NCBI GenBank assembly: GCA_023133485.1
Contig: JAGLWK010000067.1
Span: 8,015-72,014 of the forward strand
Direction of reading: 5' to 3'
DNA length: 64,000 nucleotides
Origin: Bacteroidales bacterium
GTDB taxonomy: Bacteria; Bacteroidota; Bacteroidia; Bacteroidales; B39-G9
A program made the position numbers and the translations under genes. The notes beneath the pieces are model-generated. The model saw nothing but the letters and a program-made list of their open reading frames with translations, did no database searches and was not told the origin of the DNA. Below, piece after piece: positions 33,609-62,593 of the stretch. Positions within the stretch are counted from its first letter, which is position 1. The number at the start of each line of letters is the position of its first letter.

Positions 33609-33660
33609 AGCTCTATGTTGTTTGTAGTGGGTAGTAATAAAATGCCTGCTCATTATAGAG

Positions 33661-33777
33661 ATTCAATATTCAACACTCAATACTCAACATTCAACATTCA
33701 ACACTCAACATTCAATACTCAACTCAACATTCAACATTCAATATTCAATACTCAACACTCAATATTCAACATACAAT
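33661..33777. repeat. Heptanucleotide microsatellite A(T/C)TCAA(T/C), about 17 units
   Basis: Read directly: attcaat attcaac actcaat actcaac attcaac attcaac actcaac ... Confidence 0.9.
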
Positions 33778-33816
33778 ATAACTTATTCTTATTGTAAAGT
33801 CAATAAATCTATCTTC

Positions 33817-35218: not shown

Positions 35219-37693
35219 TTAGAATTGGTACCCTAATAAAAAATATAATTTTCTTATTACTGAATTTAGACTTGGATAAATAGACATGCCATTCCCTCTT
35301 TCATATCTAAGTTCAAGCGAATAATTTTTATATATAGTACCTAACCCAAAAATATATCCTTGTTCATATTTTCGGATTTCTTCTATAGCTTTATCTTCTT
35401 TAATATTTAGACTACCGGATAACATTGTTTCTTTTTTTAAATAATTTTTTTCAGCAATTACTAATCCGTTAGACAAACCAATATTGAAATAAAGCAATAT
35501 ATTATTCTCGGAATATTGATAACGAAACATGTTATTCATCTTTATATAAGAATATCCAATAATTGTATTAAAAATTTCGTAATTACTTGAATTATAAATG
35601 TTTTTATATTTTCCTTCAACTTTATATGAGGTGTAAAATAGCTCATTATATGAAGACCAACGATTAAGTTTATTCCTAGGAACAAATAAATCGAAATATA
35701 TACCTGTAGAAAAGTTAAAAGATTTAGGATAATCAGTATTCACAAGATAAGTAAGTGAATAACCTTTAAATTGCACAGAACTTATTGACATTCCTGCAAC
35801 TATACCAATTTTTACGAATATTTTTTCTTGATTATCACTAGAATTCAATTTTAAATCACATGCTTGATAAAACGCAAATAGCTTCTTCAAGCTTTCTTTA
35901 TCATACTTAACCTTACTCAATCTTGAATGAATTGATTGACAATCATTAAGATATGAAAGTAATTGACCAACAAATTTCTTATTCTCTACTATATTTGATT
36001 TCCCATTAATTTTCTTTAGATACTTTTTATATTCCAATAGTTCAAATTGATTATTTTGTTTTATAAAAAAATTATTTTCGCCATTATTGTTTTTACAATA
36101 GTACAAACTTTTTTCACCCAGCACCAATGTTTGTAAAAAAACTGTGTCAATTTCAAAATGAAATTTTGGATTATATTCTAGCTTATTTATGTTTTGGGTA
36201 CTATTTTCTCTTTTTACAATAGAACTAACATAAATATTACCTTGTGCACGAAACAACTTAATATCATCAGGTGAATAAGACACCTTTTCATCATTAATAT
36301 CATACTGAAAGTTTATTTCTTTAGGATTATTCTCCCAATTTCGATAATCAATAAATCCTTGTAAAGTATCACCATTTTTAGAAATAATAATCCCTTCAAC
36401 GACTTCAGATTCTCTTGATAATATCTCTGGTTTTCTTTGAAATTTAATCTTAGATTTTGTATTTACATGATAAAATGTAAACAGTTCTTTCATACTCCTC
36501 TTTTCATACTTAACTTTATTCAATCTTGAACGAATTGATTGACAATCATTAAGATATAAAAGTAGTTGACCAACAAATTTCTTATTCTCTACTATATTTA
36601 ATTTTCCATTAATTTTCTTTAAATATTTTTTATATTCCAATAGTTCAAATTGATTATTTTGTTTTATATAAAAATTATCTTCGCCATTATTATTTTTACA
36701 ATAGTATAAACTTTTTTCACCTTGCACCAATGTTTGTAAAAAAACTGTGTCAATTTCAAAATGAAATTTTGGATTATATTCTAGCTTATTTATGTTTTGA
36801 GTACTGTTTTCTCTTTTTACAACAGCACTAACATAAACTTCATTTTGTCCTTGAAACAGCATAATATCTCTAGGTGAATAGAGAACCATATAACCATAAA
36901 TATTCTCCTGAAAGTTTATTTCTTTAGGATTATTCTCCCAATTATGATAATCAATAAACCCTTGTAAAATTTTACCATTAATAAAAACAATAATTCCTTT
37001 AACGGCTTCAGATTCTTTTGATAATACTTCTGGATTTCTTTGAAATTTGATTTTAGATTTTGTACATGCATGATAAAAAATAAACAGTTCCTTCATACTC
37101 CTCTTTTCATACTCAACTTTACTCAATCTTGAATGAATTGATTGACAATCATTAAGATATGAAAGTAATTGACCAACAAATTTCTTATTCTCTACTATAT
37201 TTGATTTCCCATTAATTTTCTTTAGATACTTTTTATATTCCAATAGTTCAAATTGGTTATTTTGTTTTATATAAAAATTATCTTCGCCATTATTGTTTTT
37301 ACAATAGTACAAACTTTTTTCACCCAGCACCAATGTTTGTAAAAAAACTGTGTCAATTTCAAAATGAAATTTTGGATTATATTCTAGCTTATTTATGTTT
37401 TGGGTACTGTTTTCTCTTTTTACAACAGAACTAACATAAATATCATCTTGTACACGAAACAGCTTAATATCATTAGGTGAATAAGACACCTTTTCACCAT
37501 TAATATCATACTGAAAGTTTATTTCGTTAGGTTTATTCTCCCAATTTCGATAATCAATAAATCCTTGTACAGTATCACCATTTAAGCTAATAATAAATCC
37601 AGACAAATAATTTTCTTGGCAAAATGATGTTTGGAATATAAAAATTACAAAAATTGTTAATGCAATTCTTTCAAAGAGATTTTTTGTTTGCAT
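35219..37693 (-). CDS. Outer-membrane protein with a triplicated 201-aa N-terminal module and a C-terminal beta-barrel-like domain
   Basis: Signal peptide, then three near-identical 201-aa units, then a beta-rich C-terminus ending ...YFLLGYQF (terminal Phe). Confidence 0.8.
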   Translation of the reverse strand: MQTKNLFERIALTIFVIFIFQTSFCQENYLSGFIISLNGDTVQGFIDYRNWENKPNEINFQYDINGEKVSYSPNDIKLFRVQDDIYVSSVVKRENSTQNINKLEYNPKFHFEIDTVFLQTLVLGEKSLYYCKNNNGEDNFYIKQNNQFELLEYKKYLKKINGKSNIVENKKFVGQLLSYLNDCQSIHSRLSKVEYEKRSMKELFIFYHACTKSKIKFQRNPEVLSKESEAVKGIIVFINGKILQGFIDYHNWENNPKEINFQENIYGYMVLYSPRDIMLFQGQNEVYVSAVVKRENSTQNINKLEYNPKFHFEIDTVFLQTLVQGEKSLYYCKNNNGEDNFYIKQNNQFELLEYKKYLKKINGKLNIVENKKFVGQLLLYLNDCQSIRSRLNKVKYEKRSMKELFTFYHVNTKSKIKFQRKPEILSRESEVVEGIIISKNGDTLQGFIDYRNWENNPKEINFQYDINDEKVSYSPDDIKLFRAQGNIYVSSIVKRENSTQNINKLEYNPKFHFEIDTVFLQTLVLGEKSLYYCKNNNGENNFFIKQNNQFELLEYKKYLKKINGKSNIVENKKFVGQLLSYLNDCQSIHSRLSKVKYDKESLKKLFAFYQACDLKLNSSDNQEKIFVKIGIVAGMSISSVQFKGYSLTYLVNTDYPKSFNFSTGIYFDLFVPRNKLNRWSSYNELFYTSYKVEGKYKNIYNSSNYEIFNTIIGYSYIKMNNMFRYQYSENNILLYFNIGLSNGLVIAEKNYLKKETMLSGSLNIKEDKAIEEIRKYEQGYIFGLGTIYKNYSLELRYERGNGMSIYPSLNSVIRKLYFLLGYQF
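35807..37615 (-). repeat. Three tandem 603-bp coding repeats
   Basis: tcaatcttgaa(t/c)gaattgattgacaatcattaagata recurs at 35917, 36520 and 37123, an exact 603-bp period. Copies 1 and 3 are about 95% identical by eye. Confidence 0.9.
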
Positions 37694-37860
37694 ATGTTTT
37701 TTTGTTTTATTGTAACTAACATTAAAATTTTTTGTTTTTAATCTGTATCTCTTTAATCATAGCCTGTGTGAAAATATTTCACTTCAAAATTTCTAAAAAT
37801 CCCCTAAAATTTTCACGTTTGCTTGAGAAATTAATCGGTTTTTCTAATGTGAGGAATGCG

Positions 37861-37930
37861 CCATAACATTTGAATATATCGAAGAATAGATGTATTTCTC
37901 TTATACGATAAATCAAAATGTTTTTTTAAC
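37861..37930. repeat. Intergenic repeat, D-type copy D1 (short)
   Basis: ccataacatttgaatatatcgaagaatagatgtatttctcttatacgataaatcaaaatg aligns with the D copies at 41111, 45528, 46694 and 61256. Confidence 0.75.
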
Positions 37931-40294: not shown

Positions 40295-41089
40295 TTAGTT
40301 AATGTTATGAATATAAAACGTTATTGATTTTTTATCTTTCAAAACCCCTAAACCTGCACCATAACTAACTTTAAAGCTTTTGCCTACTAATTCTTTTAAA
40401 TCTGAAGCAATCTGTTCGGCATGAATTTTTGATGATTTACTATAATAAAAAACTGTTGATTCACCTGCCATCCAAGATTGCTTGTAAGAGTAATCATATT
40501 CAGAGTCAAAATAGAAATTATTTTCTGTTATGTATTTTTTAATTAGCTTTTTTTCTTTTTCGTTAGGCTTTAGACTATATAATCCAATTATAAAAGGTTC
40601 GTTTATCGATACATCTTGTTTTTTAACGCTTAATTCTTTTTGTAAGTTTTCTTTTTCGTTTTGGAGTTCTATCAACTCTGTTTGTATAATCTCTTTTAAT
40701 GAATCTACCTTATTTTGATATTCATTTTCGTTTTGTTTTGTAATTAGGTTTATTTTCATATTTAAAGAGTCCATTTTCATTTGTACATTCAGGGCTTTGG
40801 TTTCTATCATTTTGAATTCTGAATTGACCAAATGAAAATATTCTGTCCACCTTTCACGGTATTCATCAGAAACTGAAACAGTTTTAAAATACTCCGCAAA
40901 TCTTTTTCGTACTCCAACATCTTCTCTTAATGCAATTTCTACATATTTACCTATTTGTTCTGATTCTTTGATAGCAATTTCTCTACTTTCAAATCCAGAA
41001 TTTATAACTAAGCTTATAAAACCAATAAGAAAAGTTCCTAAAAAAAATTTACCAAATTCAAGCCAAAGTTTTAATTTTTCTTTTTCCAT
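40295..41089 (-). CDS. Hypothetical membrane-anchored coiled-coil protein
   Basis: N-terminal TM (FLGTFLIGFISLVI), a long heptad-rich central region, and a C-terminal ~90 aa (TVFYYSKSSKIHAEQIASDLKELVG) that looks faintly like LytR_C. Confidence 0.55.
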   Translation of the reverse strand: MEKEKLKLWLEFGKFFLGTFLIGFISLVINSGFESREIAIKESEQIGKYVEIALREDVGVRKRFAEYFKTVSVSDEYRERWTEYFHLVNSEFKMIETKALNVQMKMDSLNMKINLITKQNENEYQNKVDSLKEIIQTELIELQNEKENLQKELSVKKQDVSINEPFIIGLYSLKPNEKEKKLIKKYITENNFYFDSEYDYSYKQSWMAGESTVFYYSKSSKIHAEQIASDLKELVGKSFKVSYGAGLGVLKDKKSITFYIHNIN

Positions 41090-41110
41090 GTAAGTCGATT
41101 TAAATTATTT

Positions 41111-41305
41111 ACAACATCTTAATATATCAAAAAGTAAATACATTTCTTTTATATAATAAATCCAAATATTTTTTAACTTTTTCTGTTTTAGTTAGTTATA
41201 TAATTTATTATTATTAATCATATTCAAATATAATATTTTTTCTCATTTATAAAATGTCGAATTGCAAACCTGACTGCCGTCAGGCAGGTTTCTGCATAGC
41301 CGGTG
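41111..41305. repeat. Intergenic repeat, D-type copy D2, with a CCTGACTGCCGTCAGGCAGG hairpin
   Basis: acaacatcttaatatatcaaaaagtaaatacatttcttttatataataaatccaaatatttttta...catattcaaata... then aacctgactgccgtcaggcaggtt. Confidence 0.8.
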
Positions 41306-41316
41306 CTTCATGAGTT

Positions 41317-42378
41317 TTAACTTAAAAAAGCTATAGGGTTGTCATGAGCTATTATTTTAAAGTTTACTTCACCTATAAAAGCACGTAAATCAATACCAAA
41401 TCTACGTTCATAAGTTTTTGTTTGGACCATATAATAATCTGAACCAAATAAGATTTTATGTTTTATTTTATTATTACTTAACAATACTTTTAGTAGTGAA
41501 AAATATTCTTTGTTATTCAAAGTAAAAGATAAATCAGTATAAAGATTTTTATGTTTTTCTATCATATTTTTAATAATGACAAACCAGTTAGTTATATCGG
41601 ATGGACTATCCAAATATTTATCCCAATAGTATTCTGACCCAAAATGTGCTAAACAAATTTTTAATTTATCAAAATCCTTCAATACATATTCATAATTCTC
41701 GGGATGGGTAAAGTGAGAACAAAGCTCCTTTTTCTTTTTTCCTTTTATGCTGATATGAGTTTTTGATTTTGACAATAATTTAAGTAAATCCTTTTTGCTT
41801 CCTTTATAATGAACAGGGTTATATGGACTACAATGAGCAATTATTGGAATGTTATTTTCCTGACAATAATCATAAATAGGATACAAGTCTTCATCGTAAG
41901 GGAAGTAACCAAGTGGTGGATATAATTTCACTCCTTTAAAATCCCATTCTTCAACACTCTTTTTTAATAAATTTAAAATCTCCTTTCTTCTCGGATCAAC
42001 ATGAATAAATGGAATTATCTGTGGATATAATTTTTTTAAATTAGCCAGTTCTTCTAACTGGTTCTTATATGGTCTGGGTACTTTTCCGGCACCCATAAAA
42101 GCCATATCCATAGGTAATATTACAAAATTTGTATCTTCCGGATAATGCTCCTTACAATTTTCAAAGATTTCCTGTTGAGAACCTAATTTTCCTATTCTCG
42201 CAAATTTAATATATCTATCAAATACATCTTTATCTGAAAATGGATTTAGGTTGTTTAATATTTTTGCAGTTAAATAAAATCCGGGTTTTGTTGCCAATAA
42301 CCTAACTAATCCTAATGGCAGAAACTTTCTTGGCACATCTGTGTCTTTGAAAGTATGAATGTGTGAATTGTAATACAT
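41317..42378 (-). CDS. Amidohydrolase-family (TIM-barrel metal-dependent hydrolase, Amidohydro_2-like) protein
   Basis: N-terminal HxH (NSHIHTF), later AHCS and LAHFG His residues, and a C-terminal LFGSDYY Asp. This is the canonical order of metal ligands. Confidence 0.75.
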   Translation of the reverse strand: MYYNSHIHTFKDTDVPRKFLPLGLVRLLATKPGFYLTAKILNNLNPFSDKDVFDRYIKFARIGKLGSQQEIFENCKEHYPEDTNFVILPMDMAFMGAGKVPRPYKNQLEELANLKKLYPQIIPFIHVDPRRKEILNLLKKSVEEWDFKGVKLYPPLGYFPYDEDLYPIYDYCQENNIPIIAHCSPYNPVHYKGSKKDLLKLLSKSKTHISIKGKKKKELCSHFTHPENYEYVLKDFDKLKICLAHFGSEYYWDKYLDSPSDITNWFVIIKNMIEKHKNLYTDLSFTLNNKEYFSLLKVLLSNNKIKHKILFGSDYYMVQTKTYERRFGIDLRAFIGEVNFKIIAHDNPIAFLS

Positions 42379-42437
42379 AAAATTTAGTTTTTTGTTATAT
42401 TGCGTGTTGGCACTTGTTTTAAATATTATAAATAATG

Positions 42438-42989
42438 CTAAAATAGTGGAATTCTATATCGCATAGTTAATCCATTGTATTTGTTCCCGAACTGATAATT
42501 CAACTGAATTTTATTGTATTCAAACCCGGCATCAAAAATATAACCCGGATTATTCTGATTGTATTTATTCAGCCCTGCCCCTAACAGTACAGAGAATGTT
42601 TTTATATCAGCAATCGATTTAAGGTCGTTATACAATCCCTTGTAACCAAGGTATAATGTATCTGCAAGATTTATAAGGCTATCCTGAGTAACAATGTGGA
42701 TATCAGCCTTTTTTTCGTAATTTTCAAATACTGCAATGAGTTCGTCCTTTGCTTTGATAATTGTACCAAGTCGTGCCTTTTGTAATTGAAATTCCTCAAG
42801 ATCATGCACCATCTGCACATATTCGGAATAATTAATTGCAACAATGGTATCTACGTCATCTTTGAACAGCCAGTACTCTAGTTGTGCTTCGTGTCCTTGA
42901 AGCGTTTTGCCTTTTATTGAAATACTTTCCTGTGCCTGCAGCAAATATGCTCCGATAACATATATAATAATAATTAATAATTTTTTCAT
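42438..42989 (-). CDS. Small secreted / outer-membrane-associated protein
   Basis: Signal peptide MKKLLIIIIYVIGAYLLQAQ. C-terminus ...GLTMRYRIPLF has a terminal Phe. Gap of 3 nt to the upstream gene. Confidence 0.6.
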   Translation of the reverse strand: MKKLLIIIIYVIGAYLLQAQESISIKGKTLQGHEAQLEYWLFKDDVDTIVAINYSEYVQMVHDLEEFQLQKARLGTIIKAKDELIAVFENYEKKADIHIVTQDSLINLADTLYLGYKGLYNDLKSIADIKTFSVLLGAGLNKYNQNNPGYIFDAGFEYNKIQLNYQFGNKYNGLTMRYRIPLF

Positions 42990-42992
42990 AGT

Positions 42993-43448
42993 TTATTGGT
43001 TATTATTTATTATCCTTCTTGCTCTTAAAACCATATCTTCCGGCGCTGTCTCATGAATCTTTCTCTCCAGTTCCTTTAATTCTTCTTCATATTTTTCATC
43101 AGCACGCAAAATATCCAGTGCCGTTTTCTTTTTTGCCTCGTCAAGCTTTTCTTTAGCTACTCTGAAGTTTTCTTTGGTAATCTCTCCGTTTATTTTAAGC
43201 TCTTCATACTCATTCTCCAGTTCTTTGAGCCTTTTTTCACGTCGCTCCAGTTCTTTAAGGAGTCTGTTCTTTTTTACAGCTTTGTAGAAAATAACAGCTC
43301 CCAGTGCCGACAAACCAAACAAAATCATCCATGATCTTTTACTTTTAAGATCGAAATCGCGAACAAACAGTATAAATACAACAATAAGTATTACAGCTAA
43401 TATCAGCAGGTCACCGTTGTTTTTAATATATTGCCAAATTTGTATCAT
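42993..43448 (-). CDS. 2-TM coiled-coil membrane protein
   Basis: Two hydrophobic helices followed by a Lys/Glu-rich heptad region (LKELERREKRLKELENEYEELK...). Gap of 3 nt to the neighbouring gene. Confidence 0.6.
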   Translation of the reverse strand: MIQIWQYIKNNGDLLILAVILIVVFILFVRDFDLKSKRSWMILFGLSALGAVIFYKAVKKNRLLKELERREKRLKELENEYEELKINGEITKENFRVAKEKLDEAKKKTALDILRADEKYEEELKELERKIHETAPEDMVLRARRIINNNQ

Positions 43449-43451
43449 ATC

Positions 43452-44114
43452 TTAAGATTTTTTTGATTTACCAACTTTTTCAAAACGCTTTATTAACTGG
43501 TGCAATGGTTCTGAACCAGCAGTAAGAATTGCTGCAGTAAGTACTATTTTTACCCATGGAGCAAGTTTACCAATAAGAATTGTTTCGCTAACCTTATTCA
43601 GAATAGTTACCAGATCGATTTTTAAAAACCGATATACCCAAATTGAGAATAACAAGGATAATACAAGAGCAAATATTCTGCTTATAATTCTGTAATACTG
43701 AGTTCTGACAGATTTTGTAGCAATTATATCTTTTCCACCTGTATAAGGCTTTTCCGATATAATATTCCAGAGTATCCATCTGTATAATAGTTTTTTATCT
43801 TCAGTATCTGAGCCCTGAAATCCGTATAGTCTGTCAAGCCGTACTTTAAATTTTTCTGCCTGCCTGTTCCAGAATTTGTACCAGCCTCGTTTTATATCGA
43901 GATACTTTACAATACTCATAAATATTTCTGTTGTACGCTCTACAAATATTGCCAGTATAAGGAACAGGAACAAAAGGTATGTTATTTTAGTAATAATCGC
44001 TACAGAAGTAACGGATTCTGTCGCTGATTCCGAAGCTGTATCCATAGCTATTTGAGGAATTGTGTCTGCAGCTACTTTTATAATGGTATCTGTAATTGTT
44101 ACTAATTCTTCCAT
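43452..44114 (-). CDS. Membrane protein, paralogous to the N-domain of the adjacent amidase
   Basis: Shares with aa 1-200 of 44127..45479 the layout TM-(I/V)ER...(TM)...AGS(E/K)P(L/I): FVERTTEIF / LIERILSFL and LTAGSEPLHQLIKRF / GAGSKPINFLMNF. Confidence 0.6.
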   Translation of the reverse strand: MEELVTITDTIIKVAADTIPQIAMDTASESATESVTSVAIITKITYLLFLFLILAIFVERTTEIFMSIVKYLDIKRGWYKFWNRQAEKFKVRLDRLYGFQGSDTEDKKLLYRWILWNIISEKPYTGGKDIIATKSVRTQYYRIISRIFALVLSLLFSIWVYRFLKIDLVTILNKVSETILIGKLAPWVKIVLTAAILTAGSEPLHQLIKRFEKVGKSKKS

Positions 44115-44126
44115 AATTATTATATT

Positions 44127-45479
44127 TTAAGCGATTACCATTGGTTTCTTTTTGAATAATTCAAGTGCCTTTTTGAATCCGGCATTATCTTTCCAGTTAT
44201 TGTAATAGTTTGTTATGCTCTCCTTAAATTCATCGTGTGGAAAGTTCCCGCCCGGACATGCTTTATCAGCAATCAAATGATGCGGAATAATTCCTTTCAC
44301 AGCATCGCCTGGTTCAAATGATTCCGGAAAAGTAAAAGGTATATTCTGAAGCAATGCATACATAGCAATAACTCTTGCAGCTGCCAGTAGCTGTTTCCCG
44401 GAAGGGATCATTAATCCAAGATCACCATTGGGGTTTGAGAAAGGAATATTGGGGTTAGGTTCGAAATTTCCCTGAAAAGCAATTCCAAATGAGTGTGAAT
44501 TATGAGGTTTAGCATGATTTCCAAACCGATCCCACCTGCAGAGGACTCTTATAGTACCATCCTTAAAAACAACACAGTTATAACCGGTAAGCCAGCCTTT
44601 TCTGTCAAATTCTTTTACTACCTCTTCAAATGGGGCATCACTGTGCATTGCTGTGTGATGGTATACAATTAAATCAATTGTTCTGGTATATTTATGTGTA
44701 TTTTCTAATCTGTCAGGTTTATTTCCTCCGTCATATTCAAATCCTACCAGATCCTCAATAGTCTCAGGTTCAATCTCTTTTGTTGTTGGCGACACTTCTT
44801 TTTGTATATCTGAGTCTGTTTTTTGTAAAACGTTGGAATCCGGAATTTTTTTCGATTCTTCCTTTATCTCGTCAGTTTCAGCTTCAATCTTTCTGTTTAC
44901 CAGAAAGTTCATCAGAAAATTTATTGGCTTACTTCCTGCACCAATTATTATTCCAGTAAAAATATATTCAAAGGTAGAATGTGAATTCGGAAATTCCGTT
45001 TCTGTATAATACCTGAAAAATTCCCAGATTGAGAAATTAAGAGCTCTGCATACAAAAATTGCAATTAGTGTTCCAAGTATTTGCATCCAGAATTCTTTAA
45101 TAATTACATTGTTTTCCTTGTATTTAATGTATCGCTCATTATCATCAAGGATGTGTTGTAAAGGTCTGATAAGTAAAAGATCAAAACATGAACTTTTTTG
45201 CTTTTCTTCAGGTAAAGCAGGATTAAACGCAACTTCACAGGGATCTTTATCAACAACAGTTTGATTGAGAATTATTTTATCTTCCTCAATGGCTTGTTTT
45301 TCCCTTCTCAATTGTTCCTGCAATTTTTCTACTTGCGTATATCTGTTTGAATACTGAAAAAGGAACATTCGGTTTATTGCCAGATTCAAAAAACTTAAGA
45401 TGCGTTCAATCAAAAGCGAAGCACCAAGGATTGCTGCAAGCTTTACTATAAGCTTATATAATAAAATGTTTTCATCCAT
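44127..45479 (-). CDS. Membrane-anchored N-acetylmuramoyl-L-alanine amidase (Amidase_2/PGRP domain) fusion protein
   Basis: The C-terminal ~190 aa carry IDLIVYHHTA, GYNCVVFKDGTI, NSHSFGIAFQGNF and IIPHHLIADKACPGGNF, giving the His/His/Cys Zn-ligand pattern of Amidase_2. The N-terminal ~200 aa are membrane and coiled-coil. Confidence 0.8.
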   Translation of the reverse strand: MDENILLYKLIVKLAAILGASLLIERILSFLNLAINRMFLFQYSNRYTQVEKLQEQLRREKQAIEEDKIILNQTVVDKDPCEVAFNPALPEEKQKSSCFDLLLIRPLQHILDDNERYIKYKENNVIIKEFWMQILGTLIAIFVCRALNFSIWEFFRYYTETEFPNSHSTFEYIFTGIIIGAGSKPINFLMNFLVNRKIEAETDEIKEESKKIPDSNVLQKTDSDIQKEVSPTTKEIEPETIEDLVGFEYDGGNKPDRLENTHKYTRTIDLIVYHHTAMHSDAPFEEVVKEFDRKGWLTGYNCVVFKDGTIRVLCRWDRFGNHAKPHNSHSFGIAFQGNFEPNPNIPFSNPNGDLGLMIPSGKQLLAAARVIAMYALLQNIPFTFPESFEPGDAVKGIIPHHLIADKACPGGNFPHDEFKESITNYYNNWKDNAGFKKALELFKKKPMVIA

Positions 45480-45527
45480 AATTGATATTGTTTATGTATT
45501 TAAATCTTGTTCATAGCATTAATGAAT

Positions 45528-45770
45528 GCCAACATCTGAATATATCGATGAGTAGATATATTTCTCTTATATGATAAACCCAAATATTATTTAACTTGTT
45601 TTGTTATAGTTAGTTATATAATTTATTTATTATTATTAATAATATTCAAATCCCCGGCAGGCAGGACAAACTGCACTGTTGTTTTATTTAATATTTTTCG
45701 TTTCACCTGCCTGCCGCCAGGCAGGTATTTGCACTTTCCGCCCGCTTGAATTTATAGCATGTTGGGCATA
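45528..45770. repeat. Intergenic repeat, D-type copy D3 (long)
   Basis: gccaacatctgaatatatcgatgagtagatatatttctcttatatgataaacccaaatatt...attcaaatcc..., then cctgcctgccgccaggcagg, ending cgcccgcttgaatttatagcatgttgggc (GTTGGGC at 45761-45767). Confidence 0.85.
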
Positions 45771-45775
45771 GTACA

Positions 45776-46702
45776 TTATTGTTCATTTATTTGATATGTT
45801 AAGTCATCTAAATCAAAATCATTAATATTTTCCTTTTGTGCCGGCTCTATCCTTAAAAAAATACTGCCATCATCATTTAACCAGGCACCATAACTATATT
45901 CTTTATTAGGTCTTAATAAAATTTCTTTTTTAACATTGAAGAAACCTGAATATTCAGGCTGTTTATCCGATGTTTTTAAGGGAATCTTTTGTAACATTAT
46001 TTGAAATGAATCAAAATCAGAAAAAATTTCATTGTCATTTTTATAGAATTTAGGATACTGTTCTTTTAATTTTTCTCTTAATTTCCCACTTGTATGATAA
46101 TTTATTATTCGCCTATTTTCGTTGCGTTCAATCCAAATTAGGTTCATATCATGTAATAGATTAAGTCGTTGCCAAATAACATTTGAATATTCATTATTTA
46201 AGTTCATCCCTTGAAAAACTTGCCTAACGACTTCTTTTTTTGTTTTGCACTTGGTAATAATTATCAATAATTCAAGTTCTTTTTCATTTAGCTTATTCCA
46301 TTCTTGTGTTATAACCGTTGAATCCAGCCTATTAATAATTTCATCCCTATCCGCAACAGTTTTCAATAATTTAAAACCATTCTTACACTCATGACAAAGA
46401 CATTTACTGTCAAAATATAAATTCTCAAAGTTAACATCTGAGCGAACATGGTAAGTTTTAATTTCCTTTTGGCAATTTTCACAAAAAAATTTCAGGGAGC
46501 TATTTATCTTAACCAGATATATTACTTTAGGTACAGAAATCTTATTTTCCTTCGCAATATCTTTGACTAATGTTTTGTACTTAAATTCATCTCTGTCAAA
46601 ATCCCAGTACTTATTGCAAATATTTACAATTTGAGAATTATCCGTTTTAATATCTAATTGTGCTGATTTTTGTTCCATTTTATCTTGTATTATGCCCAAC
46701 AT
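45776..46702 (-). CDS. Hypothetical protein with a Cys4 zinc-ribbon and a wHTH-like region
   Basis: CENC...17 aa...CLCHEC zinc-ribbon pattern. The more likely start is MEQKS at 46678, because the first 8 codons lie inside repeat D4. Confidence 0.6.
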   Translation of the reverse strand: MLGIIQDKMEQKSAQLDIKTDNSQIVNICNKYWDFDRDEFKYKTLVKDIAKENKISVPKVIYLVKINSSLKFFCENCQKEIKTYHVRSDVNFENLYFDSKCLCHECKNGFKLLKTVADRDEIINRLDSTVITQEWNKLNEKELELLIIITKCKTKKEVVRQVFQGMNLNNEYSNVIWQRLNLLHDMNLIWIERNENRRIINYHTSGKLREKLKEQYPKFYKNDNEIFSDFDSFQIMLQKIPLKTSDKQPEYSGFFNVKKEILLRPNKEYSYGAWLNDDGSIFLRIEPAQKENINDFDLDDLTYQINEQ

Positions 46703-46791
46703 CTGAATATATCAAAGAGTAAATACATTTCTTTTATACAATAAATCCAAATATTTTTTATTATTAATCATATTCAAATCCCTGTTAAAAC
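46694..46791. repeat. Intergenic repeat, D-type copy D4 (98-bp minimal form)
   Basis: gcccaacatctgaatatatcaaagagtaaatacatttcttttatacaataaatccaaatattttttattattaatcatattcaaatccctgttaaaac. Internal arms atctgaatat / atattcaaat are inverted. Confidence 0.85.
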
Positions 46792-46798
46792 CTCATTT

Positions 46799-47353
46799 CT
46801 ACTTTGGTGTGATGCCAACTTTTGTTGTTACGCCAAACAGATCCTGATTATCAATTGACTTATAGGGAGATCTCCTGATTAAATTCATCTCCTCAAGCTT
46901 GTATATTGCATCATTTACATTAATGCTTATCATTTTTGATTTTGTTATTATAGTTGACAATTTCCTCCAGTTAAATTGAGATTCATTTATGGTTTTATAT
47001 ACTTTTTCCAAACTAGTGTCAACCGGCATTTCTTCAATATTTTTAATTGGCCAGCTATTTTCTTTCAGTTTCAAATAATATTGCGTTTTAATTGTTTCTC
47101 CGTTTGTTTTTATTATTTCTATCAGAATATTAAAACTGCCCCATCCGTTTGAATAAAGTGTAAATTTTTCATTTCTGTTGGAAACTATCCTTTCAGGATT
47201 TGAAAATGTTGGGTGAAGGGTATATTTTATATGTTTGATTTCATTAAGTTTTTTCTTATCTTCATCAAGAAAAATACACCAATCATAGCGGGAGTCGGGT
47301 ACTTTATCGCTTTTAGCTATCCTTGAAAAGCTGTTAAATTTATATTTAGTCAT
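46799..47353 (-). CDS. Prokaryotic YEATS (pYEATS)-like domain protein with a C-terminal wHTH-like region
   Basis: YDWCIFLDED...IKHIKYTLHPTFSNPERIVSNRNEKFTLYSNGWGSFNILIEI fits the remembered pYEATS signature W.v.l....i..V.Y.LHPTF..P......F.l...GWG.F.i. Confidence 0.6.
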   Translation of the reverse strand: MTKYKFNSFSRIAKSDKVPDSRYDWCIFLDEDKKKLNEIKHIKYTLHPTFSNPERIVSNRNEKFTLYSNGWGSFNILIEIIKTNGETIKTQYYLKLKENSWPIKNIEEMPVDTSLEKVYKTINESQFNWRKLSTIITKSKMISINVNDAIYKLEEMNLIRRSPYKSIDNQDLFGVTTKVGITPK

Positions 47354-47852
47354 AATTTAAATTTAATTTTTCGGTTTCTAAATACTCAAGATTTCTTGTT
47401 CTGTCATACATATAAAATGGGCCTACTCTCCATTTATTACCATTTTGTTCTTTTAAATCAAATTCAATAATTTCCATATCATGAATTTTTTTGGTCAGCT
47501 CTTTATTAAAATGAACCCTGTAACCAAGTCCTCCAGTATCAACTTTGAGCAATTGAATATTTTCTTTAATTTCTCCTGAAATAGCAAAACAATTACTATT
47601 ATCCCATAAAATATTGTTTGAGTACATCTGAAGTTCTTCGGGAATAGTTAAGAAAATATTTACATTCTTTTGTTTTAAAGTGGTTTTCACCATAAAAACA
47701 AAAAGCGCGATAATTTCAGCAAGAACTGCTCCAAGTCCCCACTTGCGGAAAATATCATTACTTAAATTTGGGAAAATATTTGCAGCTAAAACCGTGATTA
47801 CTGTTAATATTGTTAGTCCTGAAACAGTATATAAGATAATTTTTTGATTCAT
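47346..47852 (-). CDS. Hypothetical 2-TM membrane protein
   Basis: Two N-terminal helices followed by a ~100-aa beta-rich domain. Its stop overlaps the start of the pYEATS gene (8-nt overlap). Confidence 0.55.
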   Translation of the reverse strand: MNQKIILYTVSGLTILTVITVLAANIFPNLSNDIFRKWGLGAVLAEIIALFVFMVKTTLKQKNVNIFLTIPEELQMYSNNILWDNSNCFAISGEIKENIQLLKVDTGGLGYRVHFNKELTKKIHDMEIIEFDLKEQNGNKWRVGPFYMYDRTRNLEYLETEKLNLNYD

Positions 47853-56407: not shown

Positions 56408-56640
56408 ACTTATTGGCATAACAATTTTTCCTGCAAAATAGTAATTTTTTTTATATACAGAGCGGTAATAAATTATACTTTACTTAATTACGTATGTGTT
56501 TAATAATTAATTAATAGAGTGTAATGTGGAAGTTTATTTTATGGTCAGTCGAAGTATATTCTATTTTTTTATTTATAAAATGTTGAATTGCAAATTTAAC
56601 AATAAAAAAAGCGGAATTATAAATTCCGCTTAGCGTAGGA
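56408..56640. repeat. Intergenic mosaic repeat, A/B-type copy AB1 (233 bp); contains the minus-strand terminator of the HMA gene
   Basis: About 95% identical by eye to 60177-60407. On the minus strand, aagcggaatttataattccgctt followed by TTTTTT forms an intrinsic terminator (plus-strand coordinates 56604-56632). Confidence 0.85.
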
Positions 56641-56675
56641 TAAAATCGTTTTGTTAAACCGATAACTATTTTATT

Positions 56676-57059
56676 TTAATGTTTAGGCGCATTGCATGGC
56701 TTATTTTTTACATGATGAATGCAATTGTTGTGTTTTTTAATAGTATCTGTTTCATTCAAATTTTTTGTTTCAAAATCAAGCTTTTGAAGTGCTTTTTCTA
56801 AATTTTCAGCTGTATTTTTACTTTTCTTATACTCTATTACAACTATTTTGGTTTCTAAATTTACTTTTACATTTTTTACGCCTTGTTCGTAAGGAATATT
56901 GTCCATAATTTTTTGTTTGCAATTATTGCATTTTACTGAACATTCAAATTTGGCAACAGCAATATCATTTTTACTGTTTTTTGACACTTCCTGACTAAAA
57001 GAATTAGCAACAAACATAACTGTCAGGCTAATAAACAAATAAAATTTTACTTTTTTCAT
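56676..57059 (-). CDS. Heavy-metal-associated (HMA) domain protein, secreted, with a His/Cys-rich tail
   Basis: Signal peptide. AKFECSVKCNNCKQKI...VKNVKVNL.....IEY shows the CxxC ferredoxin-like HMA pattern. The tail is HNNCIHHVKNKPCNAPKH. Confidence 0.75.
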   Translation of the reverse strand: MKKVKFYLFISLTVMFVANSFSQEVSKNSKNDIAVAKFECSVKCNNCKQKIMDNIPYEQGVKNVKVNLETKIVVIEYKKSKNTAENLEKALQKLDFETKNLNETDTIKKHNNCIHHVKNKPCNAPKH

Positions 57060-59958: not shown

Positions 59959-60125
59959 TTATTGATTAACAAATGTACGATATATTCTTGTTTTTCAAGT
60001 ATAATATTGCTAAAAAAAATCAAAAACTTAAGGGTAAATACAAGGTAGTAAAAATTCTTGATTCTTTTTTTGATGAGAAAGAAATAGATAAATTTTACCA
60101 CCAAGCTTAAGAAGTTACTTTGGTA

Positions 60126-60455
60126 AGCGAAATTGCAAACCTGACTGCCGTTAGGCAGGTTTCCGCTTTTGTCCACCTTATTGGCATAACAATTTTTCCT
60201 GCAAAATAATAAATTTTTTTATATACAGAGCGGTAATAAATTATACTTTACTTAATTACGTATGTGTTTAATAATTAATTAATAGAGTGTAATGTGGAAG
60301 TTCATTTTATGATCTGTCGAAGTATATTCTATTTTCTTATTTATAAAATGTTGAATTGTAAATTTAACAATAAAAAAAGCGGAATTGCAAATTCCGATTA
60401 GATGAGAAAATATTTTTATTATTTTATTTGGTTAAGTCTTAGAATTCGATTGTGT
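60126..60455. repeat. Intergenic mosaic repeat, C + A/B-type copy AB2
   Basis: gcgaaattgcaaacctgactgccgttaggcaggtttccgcttttgtcca.cttattggcataacaatttttcctgcaaaata... matches 62155-62385 and 56408-56640. It contains the terminator hairpin gcggaattgcaaattccg plus an A-run (T-run on the minus strand). Confidence 0.85.
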
Positions 60456-60502
60456 GGCGTTTTTTCTCTATTGTCGTCATATACTTGTCAATATAATTTT
60501 TA

Positions 60503-61204: not shown

Positions 61205-61255
61205 TGGTTAATTCCTTTCTTAAAATTCTACAATTCAATTTTTATTCTTAAAATG

Positions 61256-61432
61256 CCTCACAACATCTGAATATATCGAAGGGTAGATATATTTCTAATA
61301 TACAATAAATCCAAATATTTTTTAATTCGTTCTGTTTTTGTTAGTTGTATGCTTTTATTATTAATTGTAATCAAATCTTTGGCAGGCAGGTATTTGTTCT
61401 TTCTGCCCACCTGAATTTAAAGCATGTTACCA
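61256..61432. repeat. Intergenic repeat, D-type copy D5
   Basis: cctcacaacatctgaatatatcgaagggtagatatatttctaatatacaataaatccaaatatttttta...ggcaggcaggtatttgttctttctgcccacctgaatttaaagcatgttacc aligns end to end with D3. Its last ~16 nt overlap the 3' end of the PIN-like gene. Confidence 0.85.
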
Positions 61433-62030: not shown

Positions 62031-62154
62031 AGCTATATTTTTTTAACAAAAATACTAATTTTTTATTAGATATGTTTTAAGGTTCTATTTTTTTTGGTTT
62101 GGCTGTAAAATAAATATATAATTATCAAAAAATATGTTCAACAACTCTCGATAA

Positions 62155-62385
62155 GCGGAATTACAAACTTGACTGCCGTTAGGCAGGTTTCCGCTTTTGT
62201 CCATCTTATTGGCATAACAATTTTTCCTGCAAAATAGTAAATTTTTTCATCATATTCTTTCATATTTATAAAACGTTGAATAACAAATTTAACAAAATAA
62301 AAAAGCGGAATTACAAATTCCGCTCAGAGAAGAAATTATTTTTATTATTTTATTTGGTTAAGTCTTAGAATTCGATTGGGTAGTG
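62155..62385. repeat. Intergenic mosaic repeat, C + A/B-type copy AB3 (lacks the ~110-bp internal block of AB1/AB2)
   Basis: gcggaattacaaacttgactgccgttaggcaggtttccgcttttgtccatcttattggcataacaatttttcctgcaaaatagtaaa...aaaaaagcggaattacaaattccgct...ttatttggttaagtcttagaattcgatt. Confidence 0.85.
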
Positions 62386-62389
62386 TAAT

Positions 62390-62593
62390 TTACTTAGATT
62401 CTTTCTTCAAAATGTCAGAGATACCTAAGTCTTTACATATCTTTCGACACAGATTCTCTTTGATGTCTGGATGTCTTGGTACTGTTGACATTTTCTCCGT
62501 TTTAGTATTCTTATACAATGAGTGCTTTCCACCCTCTCTTGCAAGCGAGCAGCCATTCTTCTCAAGATATTTAATAAACTTATTTCGTTTCAC
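62390..62593 (-). CDS. hicA: Type II toxin-antitoxin system HicA-family toxin
   Basis: MKRNKFIKYLEKNGCSLAREGGKHSLYKN..T.K.STVPRH.DIKENL...ICKDLGI. Confidence 0.85.
   Translation of the reverse strand: MKRNKFIKYLEKNGCSLAREGGKHSLYKNTKTEKMSTVPRHPDIKENLCRKICKDLGISDILKKESK

Follow-up and report, generated by a model that had tools for sequence, protein, structure and literature searches.

The lysis cassettes of phages, such as S105-R-Rz-Rz1 of lambda, are compact operons in which the gene for a peptidoglycan hydrolase accompanies those for small inner-membrane proteins and an outer-membrane partner. Bacteria use the same holin/hydrolase/spanin logic without phages (PMC4259817, PMC10847048) in the type 10 secretion systems (T10SS), represented by ChiW/ChiX/ChiY/ChiZ of Serratia, TtsA of Salmonella and the system of Yersinia entomophaga (PMC4259817, PMC10847048, PMC13284979). 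A natural holin-endolysin fusion, TpeE of Clostridium sporogenes, has been proposed to flip its C-terminus in a TatA-like manner, according to a 'membrane-weakening and flipping' model (PMC9527704). Here we describe a cassette of four genes, g1–g4, built around a membrane-tethered zinc amidase, in a 64,000-nucleotide stretch of a Bacteroidales genome (contig JAGLWK010000067.1, positions 8,015 to 72,014 of the forward strand; 'the window', to which coordinates refer unless another locus is named). The names g1–g5 denote five open reading frames (ORFs) on the minus strand, running from 45479 down to 41317. Their intergenic gaps of 12, 3, 3 and 59 nt (g1/g2, g2/g3, g3/g4 and g4/g5) agree with those given in the first-pass annotation of the window.

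44127..45479, minus strand: g1, 450 aa; membrane domain, flexible linker and Amidase_2/PGRP-type zinc amidase
44895..45479, minus strand: g1 N-domain, residues 1–195; defined by alignments and AlphaFold2 (AF2) helices, no Pfam, PDB or BFVD match
44760..44894, minus strand: g1 linker, residues 196–240; low pLDDT, variable length and sequence in the alignment
44127..44759, minus strand: g1 amidase domain, residues 241–450, and stop codon; defined by invariant columns, hidden Markov model (HMM) alignment and Foldseek
43452..44114, minus strand: g2, 220 aa; membrane protein, paralogue of the g1 N-domain without the enzyme
42993..43448, minus strand: g3, 151 aa; two hydrophobic segments and a charged helical tail
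42438..42989, minus strand: g4, 183 aa; exported, with signal peptide, long helix, four β-strands and C-terminal Phe
41317..42378, minus strand: g5, 353 aa; Amidohydro_2 protein

The four-gene cassette resembles the phage lysis cassettes in that a single compact operon again combines a hydrolase for peptidoglycan with small proteins of the inner membrane and a partner in the outer membrane; in its endolysin-type amidase, which is predicted to wait on the cytoplasmic side; and in a two-gene core, the trans-envelope pair g3/g4 being dispensable in some loci. Class I holins, for which the S105 topology serves as the comparison, share with g1 and g2 a predicted three-segment domain with its N-terminus outside and C-terminus inside (N-out/C-in) and a basic C-tail. 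In contrast to the phage cassettes, g1–g4 have no sequence or fold homology to holin or spanin families, the amidase is covalently fused to a membrane domain, and a pair of paralogues replaces the single holin. The membrane proteins are also 2–3 times larger, with loops of ~80–100 aa; g4 is a putative β-strand anchor with a long helix, not a lipoprotein; and the cassette is chromosomal, lacks a phage context and is conserved across phyla. With the T10SS it would share envelope opening by a holin, a peptidoglycan hydrolase and spanin logic in a non-phage, bacterial setting, but T10SS components are recognisably phage-derived and encoded beside their cargo, whereas g1–g4 show neither such homology nor a conserved cargo gene.

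Conservation and distribution of the cassette

Relatives were sought in 185,579 species, each represented by one genome; the scan returned 105, of which 80 loci were kept; the resulting prevalence of ~0.06 % of species genomes is a lower bound set by the search patterns. Iterative HMM searches were run over all ORFs of the retained loci, and 83 loci besides the window were compared. Full-length g1 homologues (36–72 % identity, 94–100 % coverage) are found in Bacteroidota, Balneolaceae, Rhodothermales, Ignavibacteriae, Calditrichaeota, KSB1 and Chloroherpetonaceae, to which the species scan adds Fibrobacterota, Gemmatimonadota, Acidobacteriota, Nitrospiraceae, Deferribacteres, Desulfobacteraceae, SAR324, Myxococcota and Gammaproteobacteria. 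At least 12 phyla, all of them diderm, carry the cassette, and one host, Parathalassolituus penaei G-43, is cultured.

The order and strand of g1-g2-g3-g4 are kept in 67 of the 69 loci with enough sequence (64 complete as called, three with an over-extended g2 ORF), while 14 loci are cut by a contig end. The first-pass annotation would have taken its reading as refuted had homologues not co-occurred outside this genome; they do, with strict synteny. Among the 64 complete loci, the g1/g2, g2/g3 and g3/g4 junctions fall within −4 to +20 nt in 58, 41 and 42, respectively, and g2 and g3 overlap by 4 nt in 21. The four genes are translationally coupled and strictly co-inherited. Two Rhodothermales loci (L070, 586–2373, and L075, 6974–8767) have g1 and g2 but lack g3 and g4, although the sequence available downstream exceeds 6 kb; unrelated genes follow on the opposite strand. 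This variant suggests that the pair may suffice as the functional core of the system, with g3 and g4 as its accessories.

The block had initially been taken as a unit of five genes. The last of these, g5, is the HxH amidohydrolase that it was annotated as (Pfam Amidohydro_2, E 4.5e-15; HIH at residues 6–8, ...NSHIHTF). However, none of the 83 other loci, the relatives at 66–72 % identity among them, has a g5 homologue within ±7 kb of the cassette, and g5 is also missing from the neighbourhood of a 69 %-identical relative. The conserved unit therefore consists of four genes, not five, and by these comparisons g5 is a lineage-specific passenger and not a component of the conserved system.

All-against-all clustering of the neighbours in the 83 loci yields no further conserved gene beside the cassette. 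Among 147 flanking proteins from ~50 loci each Pfam family recurs at most three times (the matches include MFS, SDR, ECF sigma, LptF/G, cellulases and similar families), and there is no enrichment of defence genes; individual contexts include groEL, lpxD/macB and cellulase clusters. Candidates picked from IMG/VR by two conserved amidase-domain peptide patterns include no g1 relative confirmed by tblastn, the 50,697 GenBank phage records give no tblastn match for g2 or the g1 N-domain, PLSDB plasmids have no g1 match, and PADLOC-DB v2 returns nothing significant for g1–g4. The cassette is autonomous, in that it has no conserved neighbours, and it is chromosomal, restricted to diderms and rare.

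A neighbour-joining tree of g1 shows two deep clades. Clade A contains mainly phyla of the FCB group, with a monophyletic Bacteroidota branch, and includes the window sequence; in clade B the phyla are intermixed, which implies some horizontal transfer. The sequences from Bacteroidota fall into one clade and sit in housekeeping contexts, a pattern suggestive of mostly vertical descent in that phylum.

Architecture of the four proteins

The Amidase_2/PGRP assignment and the His/His/Cys zinc ligands of the first-pass annotation hold for g1. The Pfam Amidase_2 domain (PF01510) spans residues 265–410 (E 2e-13; 51.2 bits against a cut-off of 26), and in alignments of 25 and 107 sequences the ligands H274/H275, H400 and C408 are invariant and the catalytic residues K406 and Y300 at least 90 % conserved. 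The spacing of these residues matches that of T7 lysozyme (H...H-x5-K-x-C), and a PDB profile/HMM alignment places the catalytic motifs over those of LysCS, PGRPs and T7 lysozyme. With the AF2 model (pLDDT 87.6, pTM 0.77), Foldseek finds the LysCS/LysC endolysins in the PDB at a TM-score of 0.80 (root-mean-square deviation 1.9 for LysCS) and T7 lysozyme at 0.72; endolysin and PGRP matches extend over about 0.6–0.81, with PGRPs at ~0.6, and AmpD lies lower, at 0.55–0.60. In both PDB and BFVD it is the amidase domain alone that is matched; the BFVD matches are phage amidases, and the PHROG matches of the catalytic domain are lysis amidases. Sequence and model comparisons place the domain nearest to phage/clostridial endolysins and PGRPs, not AmpD, and g1 is a catalytically intact, endolysin-type predicted MurNAc-L-Ala zinc amidase. 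By itself this domain is ordinary; what is new is the fusion partner and the company that it keeps.

The g1 N-domain comprises AF2 helices at residues 7–45, 49–71, 113–146, 153–160, 169–180 and 183–195. The first contains transmembrane segment 1 (TM1) with the invariant pair E25-R26, and helix 113–146 contains TM2; between them lies loop1, a helical/coil region of ~100 aa in which helix 49–71 is followed by a 40-residue coil with a conserved DPxEI..NP motif (pLDDT 82–91). TM3 is the kinked helix pair 169–180 and 183–195 (T-G-I-I-I-G-x-G-S-x-P-x-H/N), the kink being centred on G180-x-G182-S183-x-P185-x-(H/N)187. Since the loop1 coil has a pLDDT of 82–91 and the whole model a pTM of 0.77, the model suggests that loop1 and the amidase pack on the same membrane side. 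The linker opens with the invariant R196 and K197, is of low complexity and falls below a pLDDT of 50 at residues 211–228; its ~45 residues are predicted to be flexible or disordered. No PDB or BFVD fold and no Pfam family matches the N-domain, which the model portrays as a novel three-segment membrane domain.

TpeE provides a close comparison for the fusion as such. There too an endolysin is joined C-terminally to a membrane segment, and the last segment of g1 recalls the TpeE/TatA-like model in its succession of short hydrophobic helix, Gly/Pro hinge, polar-striped helix and cargo. However, TpeE has a single TM helix and a monoderm host, whereas g1 has two more TM helices, a large loop, a dedicated paralogue and both outer- and inner-membrane partners; no BhlA/TpeE-type Pfam match is found in g1. 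At two loci (L029, 6986–8278, and L080, 11–1324) g1 is split into two ORFs, one for the N-domain and one for the amidase, which could reflect a frameshift, a pseudogene, an error in a metagenome-assembled genome or separately encoded domains.

The relationship between g2 and the g1 N-domain, claimed in the first-pass annotation from shared motifs, is visible only with profiles and not by pairwise BLASTP (E 0.22, not significant). An HMM built from g2 alone matches 80 of 86 g1-family proteins (median E 6e-8) with no false positives among 4,907 ORFs, and the reciprocal g1-only profile matches 64 of 83 g2 proteins. Compared with hhalign, the two family alignments match at a probability of 98.2 % (E 3.6e-14) along 159 collinear columns, which span TM1 with the E-R motif, the loop, TM2, and TM3 with the G-x-G-S-x-P motif. 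The quoted motifs, LLIER and GAGSKPI in g1 and IFVER and TAGSEPL in g2, fall in aligned columns as (I/V)ER and AGS(K/E)P. On this profile evidence g2 is paralogous to the g1 N-domain and carries no enzyme. Its invariant residues are E59, R60, W82, G200 and H205, and its C-terminal tail is basic. Among 1.84 billion representatives the family forms 89 clusters at 50 % identity; these are ~170–300 aa long except for a few short fragments, and therefore no alternative enzyme fusions are visible. A PDB profile search with g2 gave coiled-coil noise only, and a family-wide Pfam scan gave no recurrent match.

Both paralogues have a P-x-H motif after the G-x-G-S hinge of TM3, at residues 185–187 of g1 (44919–44927) and 203–205 of g2 (43500–43508). 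The His is an invariant residue of g2, and 64 % of g1 sequences have it too, with Asn in the clade of the window. It may act as a proton- or metal-sensing residue within the membrane. An intramembrane salt bridge between K184 of g1 and E202 of g2 was considered and dropped, as neither position is well conserved family-wide.

The g3 protein has, as first annotated, two hydrophobic segments (at about residues 13–30 and 42–56) followed by a charged helical tail of ~95 aa. Charge statistics leave its orientation ambiguous, with the tail either periplasmic or cytoplasmic. Family-wide Pfam searches gave many generic 2-TM/coiled-coil families, all sub-threshold, among them SLATT_1 (4 of 50 members, best E 1.7e-5), SLATT_fungal (20.9 bits against 26.5), Halogen_Hydrol, ATP-synt_B and DivIC; membership of g3 in SLATT or other generic 2-TM families was not counted, the matches being scattered and below gathering thresholds. 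An apparent cross-match between g3 and g4 in the iterative HMMs is most simply explained by coiled-coil similarity.

g4 is the small signal-peptide protein ending in ...RIPLF that it had been annotated as, and the last residue is aromatic in 60 of 76 family members (F 54, W 5, Y 1). Its signal peptide is of the signal peptidase I type (...AQ|E) and no lipobox is present; some relatives have a Cys 3–5 residues past the predicted cleavage site, not in a lipobox. In the AF2 model (pLDDT 70 overall and 65–86 in the helix/strand architecture, from 13 sequences) a disordered stretch, 18–51, is followed by a single 74-residue helix, 54–127, and four amphipathic β-strands, 132–178. The alignment behind this model is shallow, because homologue searches gave only 4 proteins from the single sequence and 13 from a 46-sequence profile. 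The anatomy resembles that of a YadA-like anchor, with a long helix, then exactly four C-terminal amphipathic β-strands and a terminal aromatic residue. In trimeric autotransporters each chain contributes four strands to a 12-strand barrel. Unlike those anchors, g4 has no Pfam match and no passenger domain, and the comparison comes from a monomer model. Foldseek of the monomer against the PDB gives nothing below E 0.3, a PDB profile search gives coiled-coil noise only, no Pfam model matches the window protein at E ≤ 0.1, YadA-type anchor models included, and a family-wide search (46 members, E ≤ 0.05) returns coiled-coil noise and no YadA-type anchor family. The model would fit a candidate oligomeric outer-membrane anchor, its helix directed towards either the periplasm or the cell surface; the o-spanin-like role at first assigned to g4 sits badly with a predicted β-strand protein that lacks a lipobox.

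That the combination had not been described was also claimed in the first-pass annotation, and this stands: nothing was found for g2, g3, g4 or the g1 N-domain in Pfam, NCBIfam, PHROGs, PADLOC, the PDB or the literature searched, which holds no description of the operon either. The fusion partner, the paralogue g2, g3 and g4, and the strict four-gene association are undescribed in the resources queried.

Predicted topology, possible function and alternatives

The topology was assessed from family-wide counts of Lys and Arg (K+R) under the positive-inside rule:

N-tail before TM1: mean K+R 0.16 in g1, 0.08 in g2
Flanks after TM1 and before TM2: mean K+R 2.5 and 2.4 in g1, 2.0 and 2.4 in g2
loop2, of net negative charge: mean K+R 0.9 in g1, 1.5 in g2
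Segment after TM3: mean K+R 3.4 in the 15 residues following TM3 of g1, 4.3 in the 11-residue C-tail of g2

These counts predict that the membrane domains of g1 and g2 are N-out/C-in, a topology also found in lambda S105 and TatA, which would leave the resting amidase on the cytoplasmic face. TM1 of g1 is preceded by neither a signal peptide nor a positively charged n-region. The TM helices are lined with polar residues, notably the E-R pair in TM1 and the G-x-G-S-x-P-x-H kink in TM3.

We tentatively favour the reading that g1–g4 are an autonomous, chromosomally inherited envelope-opening module, whose function is like that of holin, endolysin and spanin but which is made from unrelated parts. 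At rest the folded amidase would be held on the cytoplasmic face, away from peptidoglycan, and g1 and g2 would hetero-oligomerise through their polar-lined helices. On a trigger, g1 and g2 would open or weaken the inner membrane, and the amidase would then gain access to the sacculus and strip stem peptides. The inner-membrane coiled-coil protein g3 and g4, with its putative oligomeric outer-membrane anchor and ~110 Å helix, would link both membranes, so that a breach in the peptidoglycan is either coupled to the outer membrane or kept in check. The permeabilising protein, if there is one, would be g1N/g2 or the 2-TM g3. The output could be whole-cell lysis, local non-lytic export, as in the T10SS, or controlled remodelling. 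Such a device is suggested by the endolysin-type amidase on its long flexible linker, the predicted cytoplasmic resting site, the polar-lined helices, the dedicated paralogue g2, the minimal g1+g2 variant, and the pairing of the g3 coiled coil with the helix-plus-barrel of g4. A more specific version, of which we are rather doubtful, is a phage-independent, anciently assembled trans-envelope apparatus of diderms, representing a new class of regulated machine for opening the envelope, that self-translocates a zinc amidase parked in the cytoplasm and has converged with phage lysis cassettes and T10SS. In that apparatus the paralogous pair, with its TatA-like element of short helix, hinge and amphipathic helix, would move the folded amidase across the inner membrane, while the 2-TM coiled-coil protein and a miniature oligomeric outer-membrane barrel would couple translocation to the outer membrane.

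Several observations weigh against an envelope-opening module. The lysis-cassette logic proposed in the first-pass annotation keeps its endolysin-nearest amidase, predicted cytoplasmic parking and g1+g2 variant, but not a family relationship: no protein matches a holin, spanin or T10SS family in Pfam, PHROGs or NCBIfam. TM domains, a basic C-tail and adjacency to an endolysin are present when g2 and g3 are compared with holins, but g2 (190–220 aa, with a ~80-aa loop, against ~60–150 aa for holins) and g3 (~150 aa) exceed the typical holin size. The spanin analogy is loose, as g4 lacks a lipobox and the TM segments of g3 are two in number and of ambiguous orientation, whereas i-spanins are type II proteins with a single N-terminal TM domain and a periplasmic coiled coil. 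The topology derives solely from the positive-inside rule, and TM3, kinked and polar, could be re-entrant. The flanks of the 83 loci offer no linked gene for a trigger, regulator or cargo, and the suggested vertical descent in Bacteroidota also fits a non-lethal housekeeping role. The interpretation as an envelope-opening module is drawn from sequence and models.

The main rival, which we consider unlikely, is a constitutive trans-envelope complex for peptidoglycan remodelling or tethering, with the topology reversed and the amidase, together with the loops of g1 and g2 and the coil of g3, in the periplasm. With the g4 anchor it would form a periplasm-spanning helical assembly, the amidase trimming peptidoglycan locally for cell separation, outer-membrane invagination or its own passage, as a complex, through the sacculus. 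The closest analogy would be FtsEX-EnvC-AmiA/B or NlpD-AmiC, where an amidase is likewise controlled by inner-membrane/coiled-coil partners and an outer-membrane factor; those systems, however, use Amidase_3, LytM-domain activators and an ABC-type motor, none of which occurs in g1–g4, and g1 is an Amidase_2 fused to its own membrane partner. Folded AmiA and AmiC are exported by Tat, a precedent for zinc amidases that fold in the cytoplasm. The housekeeping contexts (lpxD, groEL, LptF/G) with no defence or phage association, the single Bacteroidota clade, the apparent placing of loop1 and the amidase on one membrane side, and the g3 tail and g4 helix, which could together span the periplasm, are all consistent with remodelling. 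The charges are not: three independent short segments, namely N-tails almost devoid of K/R, an acidic loop2 and a strongly basic g2 C-tail, contradict N-in/C-out. The lack of a signal peptide or positively charged n-region ahead of TM1 also speaks against this rival, and the rarity of the cassette (~105 matches among 185,579 species genomes) rules out a core division function. An infection-triggered version of the favoured mechanism, that is anti-phage abortive infection or altruistic autolysis, was among the roles suggested in the first-pass annotation but is improbable. PADLOC gives it nothing significant, the flanking proteins reveal no defence-island association, and no relatives were found in the plasmid and phage records searched; what speaks for it is the rare and patchy distribution with some horizontal transfer in clade B, the self-contained cassette in variable contexts, and the small uncharacterised neighbours in the window, which include a pYEATS protein. 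Weak matches of the g3 family to SLATT 2-TM effector and PADLOC '2TM effector' models point the same way, although the SLATT matches stay below gathering thresholds and are scattered over generic 2-TM/coiled-coil families.

The predicted cytoplasmic amidase, the membership of AmpD in the same fold family and the polar lining of the TM helices would also suit the processing of muropeptides or peptidoglycan precursors, in which a membrane-tethered cytoplasmic amidase acts, AmpD-like, on imported anhydro-muropeptides or lipid-linked precursors, with g1N/g2/g3 as an inner-membrane conduit and g4 as an outer-membrane scavenging pore. This is very improbable, given an amidase domain closer to endolysins and PGRPs than to AmpD, the lack of a transporter-like fold or energy-coupling module among the four proteins, and a barrel of four strands per chain with a 74-residue helix, which would be atypical for a porin. 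A functional unit of five genes has in its favour that g5 lies on the same strand, after a 59-nt gap without a hairpin, between the same promoter-like repeats, and is probably co-transcribed; yet with no g5 homologue near the cassette in the 83 other loci it is highly unlikely, and effectively refuted as far as a general component is concerned. A remnant or module of a prophage lysis cassette is hardly credible: the gene logic is similar and PHROG lysis-amidase models match the catalytic domain, but no g1 relative was confirmed among the IMG/VR candidates, g2 and the g1 N-domain are absent from the GenBank phage records searched, the flanks hold no phage genes, and the cassette is kept across phyla at 30–70 % identity. 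In the window, too, no phage genes were found within ±10 kb of the block, in agreement with the first-pass annotation, and the locus is not in a prophage.

Local setting and significance of the cassette

Three elements flank the probable local transcription unit:

45521..45645, minus strand: D2/D3 repeat copy whose end lies 42 nt before the start codon of g1; candidate promoter or 5' leader
41103..41227, minus strand: D2/D3 repeat copy upstream of the 264-aa gene (40295–41089); start of the next transcription unit
41266..41291, minus strand: GC-rich hairpin starting 26 nt downstream of the g5 stop; candidate terminator of the g1–g5 transcript

The hairpin after g5 has a fold energy of −14.4 kcal/mol (z −2.1) and a GC-rich one after the upstream 308-aa gene −18 kcal/mol (z −4.2), while a hairpin scan of the 59-nt g4–g5 gap found none. 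From these hairpins and the repeat positions, g1–g5 are probably one transcript in this genome. A scan for sigma-70 promoters and terminators gave signal at background level.

The D2/D3 element is a conserved stretch of ~70–125 nt that precedes, by 15–160 nt, the start codons of five unrelated minus-strand units. The copies, with the core ...AATATTTGGATTTATTGTATAAnAGAAATATATCTACTCTTCGATATATTCAGATGTTG, are at 37856–37927, 41104–41175, 45522–45593, 46689–46760 and 61253–61324, and the units downstream are the 824-aa repeat protein, the 264-aa gene that follows g5, g1 itself, the 308-aa gene that precedes g1 and a gene for a 233-aa membrane methyltransferase-like protein. The majority of these units code for envelope or membrane proteins. 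The element, which has no match in Rfam, is a candidate shared promoter or 5' leader, possibly one that defines a regulon. The repeats that had been said to bracket the block are thus present on both sides of it, but by their positions they mark promoters or leaders and not cassette boundaries; an integron- or MITE-like (miniature inverted-repeat transposable element) origin was rejected, since the element sits just 5' of five unrelated start codons.

GC-rich palindromes (ACCTGCCTGGCGGCAGGCAGGT and variants) lie just past stop codons at 45705–45726 and 41266–41291, and similar sequence occurs at 60124–60222 and 62152–62250, in a region otherwise of 25–30 % GC; they look like repetitive extragenic palindromic (REP)-type or terminator hairpins without a T-run. 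The 264-aa protein directly downstream of the block (40295–41089, minus strand) has an N-terminal TM segment and a long coiled coil, and no family match was found for it. A pYEATS-domain protein (184 aa, E 1e-20) overlaps by 8 nt with an upstream 168-aa protein that has an N-terminal hydrophobic, probably membrane-spanning region (46799–47353 and 47346–47852, minus strand); the pair, which may be a two-gene module, adjoins the uncharacterised 308-aa protein. The 824-aa signal-peptide protein (35219–37693, minus strand) contains three internal repeats of ~200 aa with 91–94 % nucleotide identity (35865–36164, 36468–36767 and 37071–37370) and a C-terminal domain that looks like a β-barrel and ends in ...GYQF; the internal triplication is recent and suggests an outer-membrane protein. 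Intergenic DNA holds a tandem array of a 14-nt unit (ATTCAACACTCAAT-like) at 33647–33793, and a duplication of ~290 nt whose copies, 56409–56697 and 60177–60465, lie 3.8 kb apart; their first 225 nt are 96 % identical and the remainder has diverged. A third, partial copy of 106 nt, 84 % identical, is at 62286–62391.

We place the cassette among the envelope-opening cassettes, with a substantial chance that it is an independent invention deserving a category of its own. No described family takes in g2, g3, g4 or the membrane domain of g1, yet the set is inherited together with near-perfect synteny over at least 12 diderm phyla. If the predicted topology is true, an active endolysin-type amidase is tethered inside the cell's own membrane, which would imply a dedicated and regulated route for its exposure to the wall. 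It would then bear on phage-independent programmed lysis, on the release of vesicles or extracellular DNA and on the export of folded proteins independently of Sec and Tat, and it would be a case in which the holin/endolysin/spanin solution evolved convergently. Small and self-contained, the cassette is present in at least one cultured strain, Parathalassolituus penaei G-43, so that the hypothesis is directly testable.

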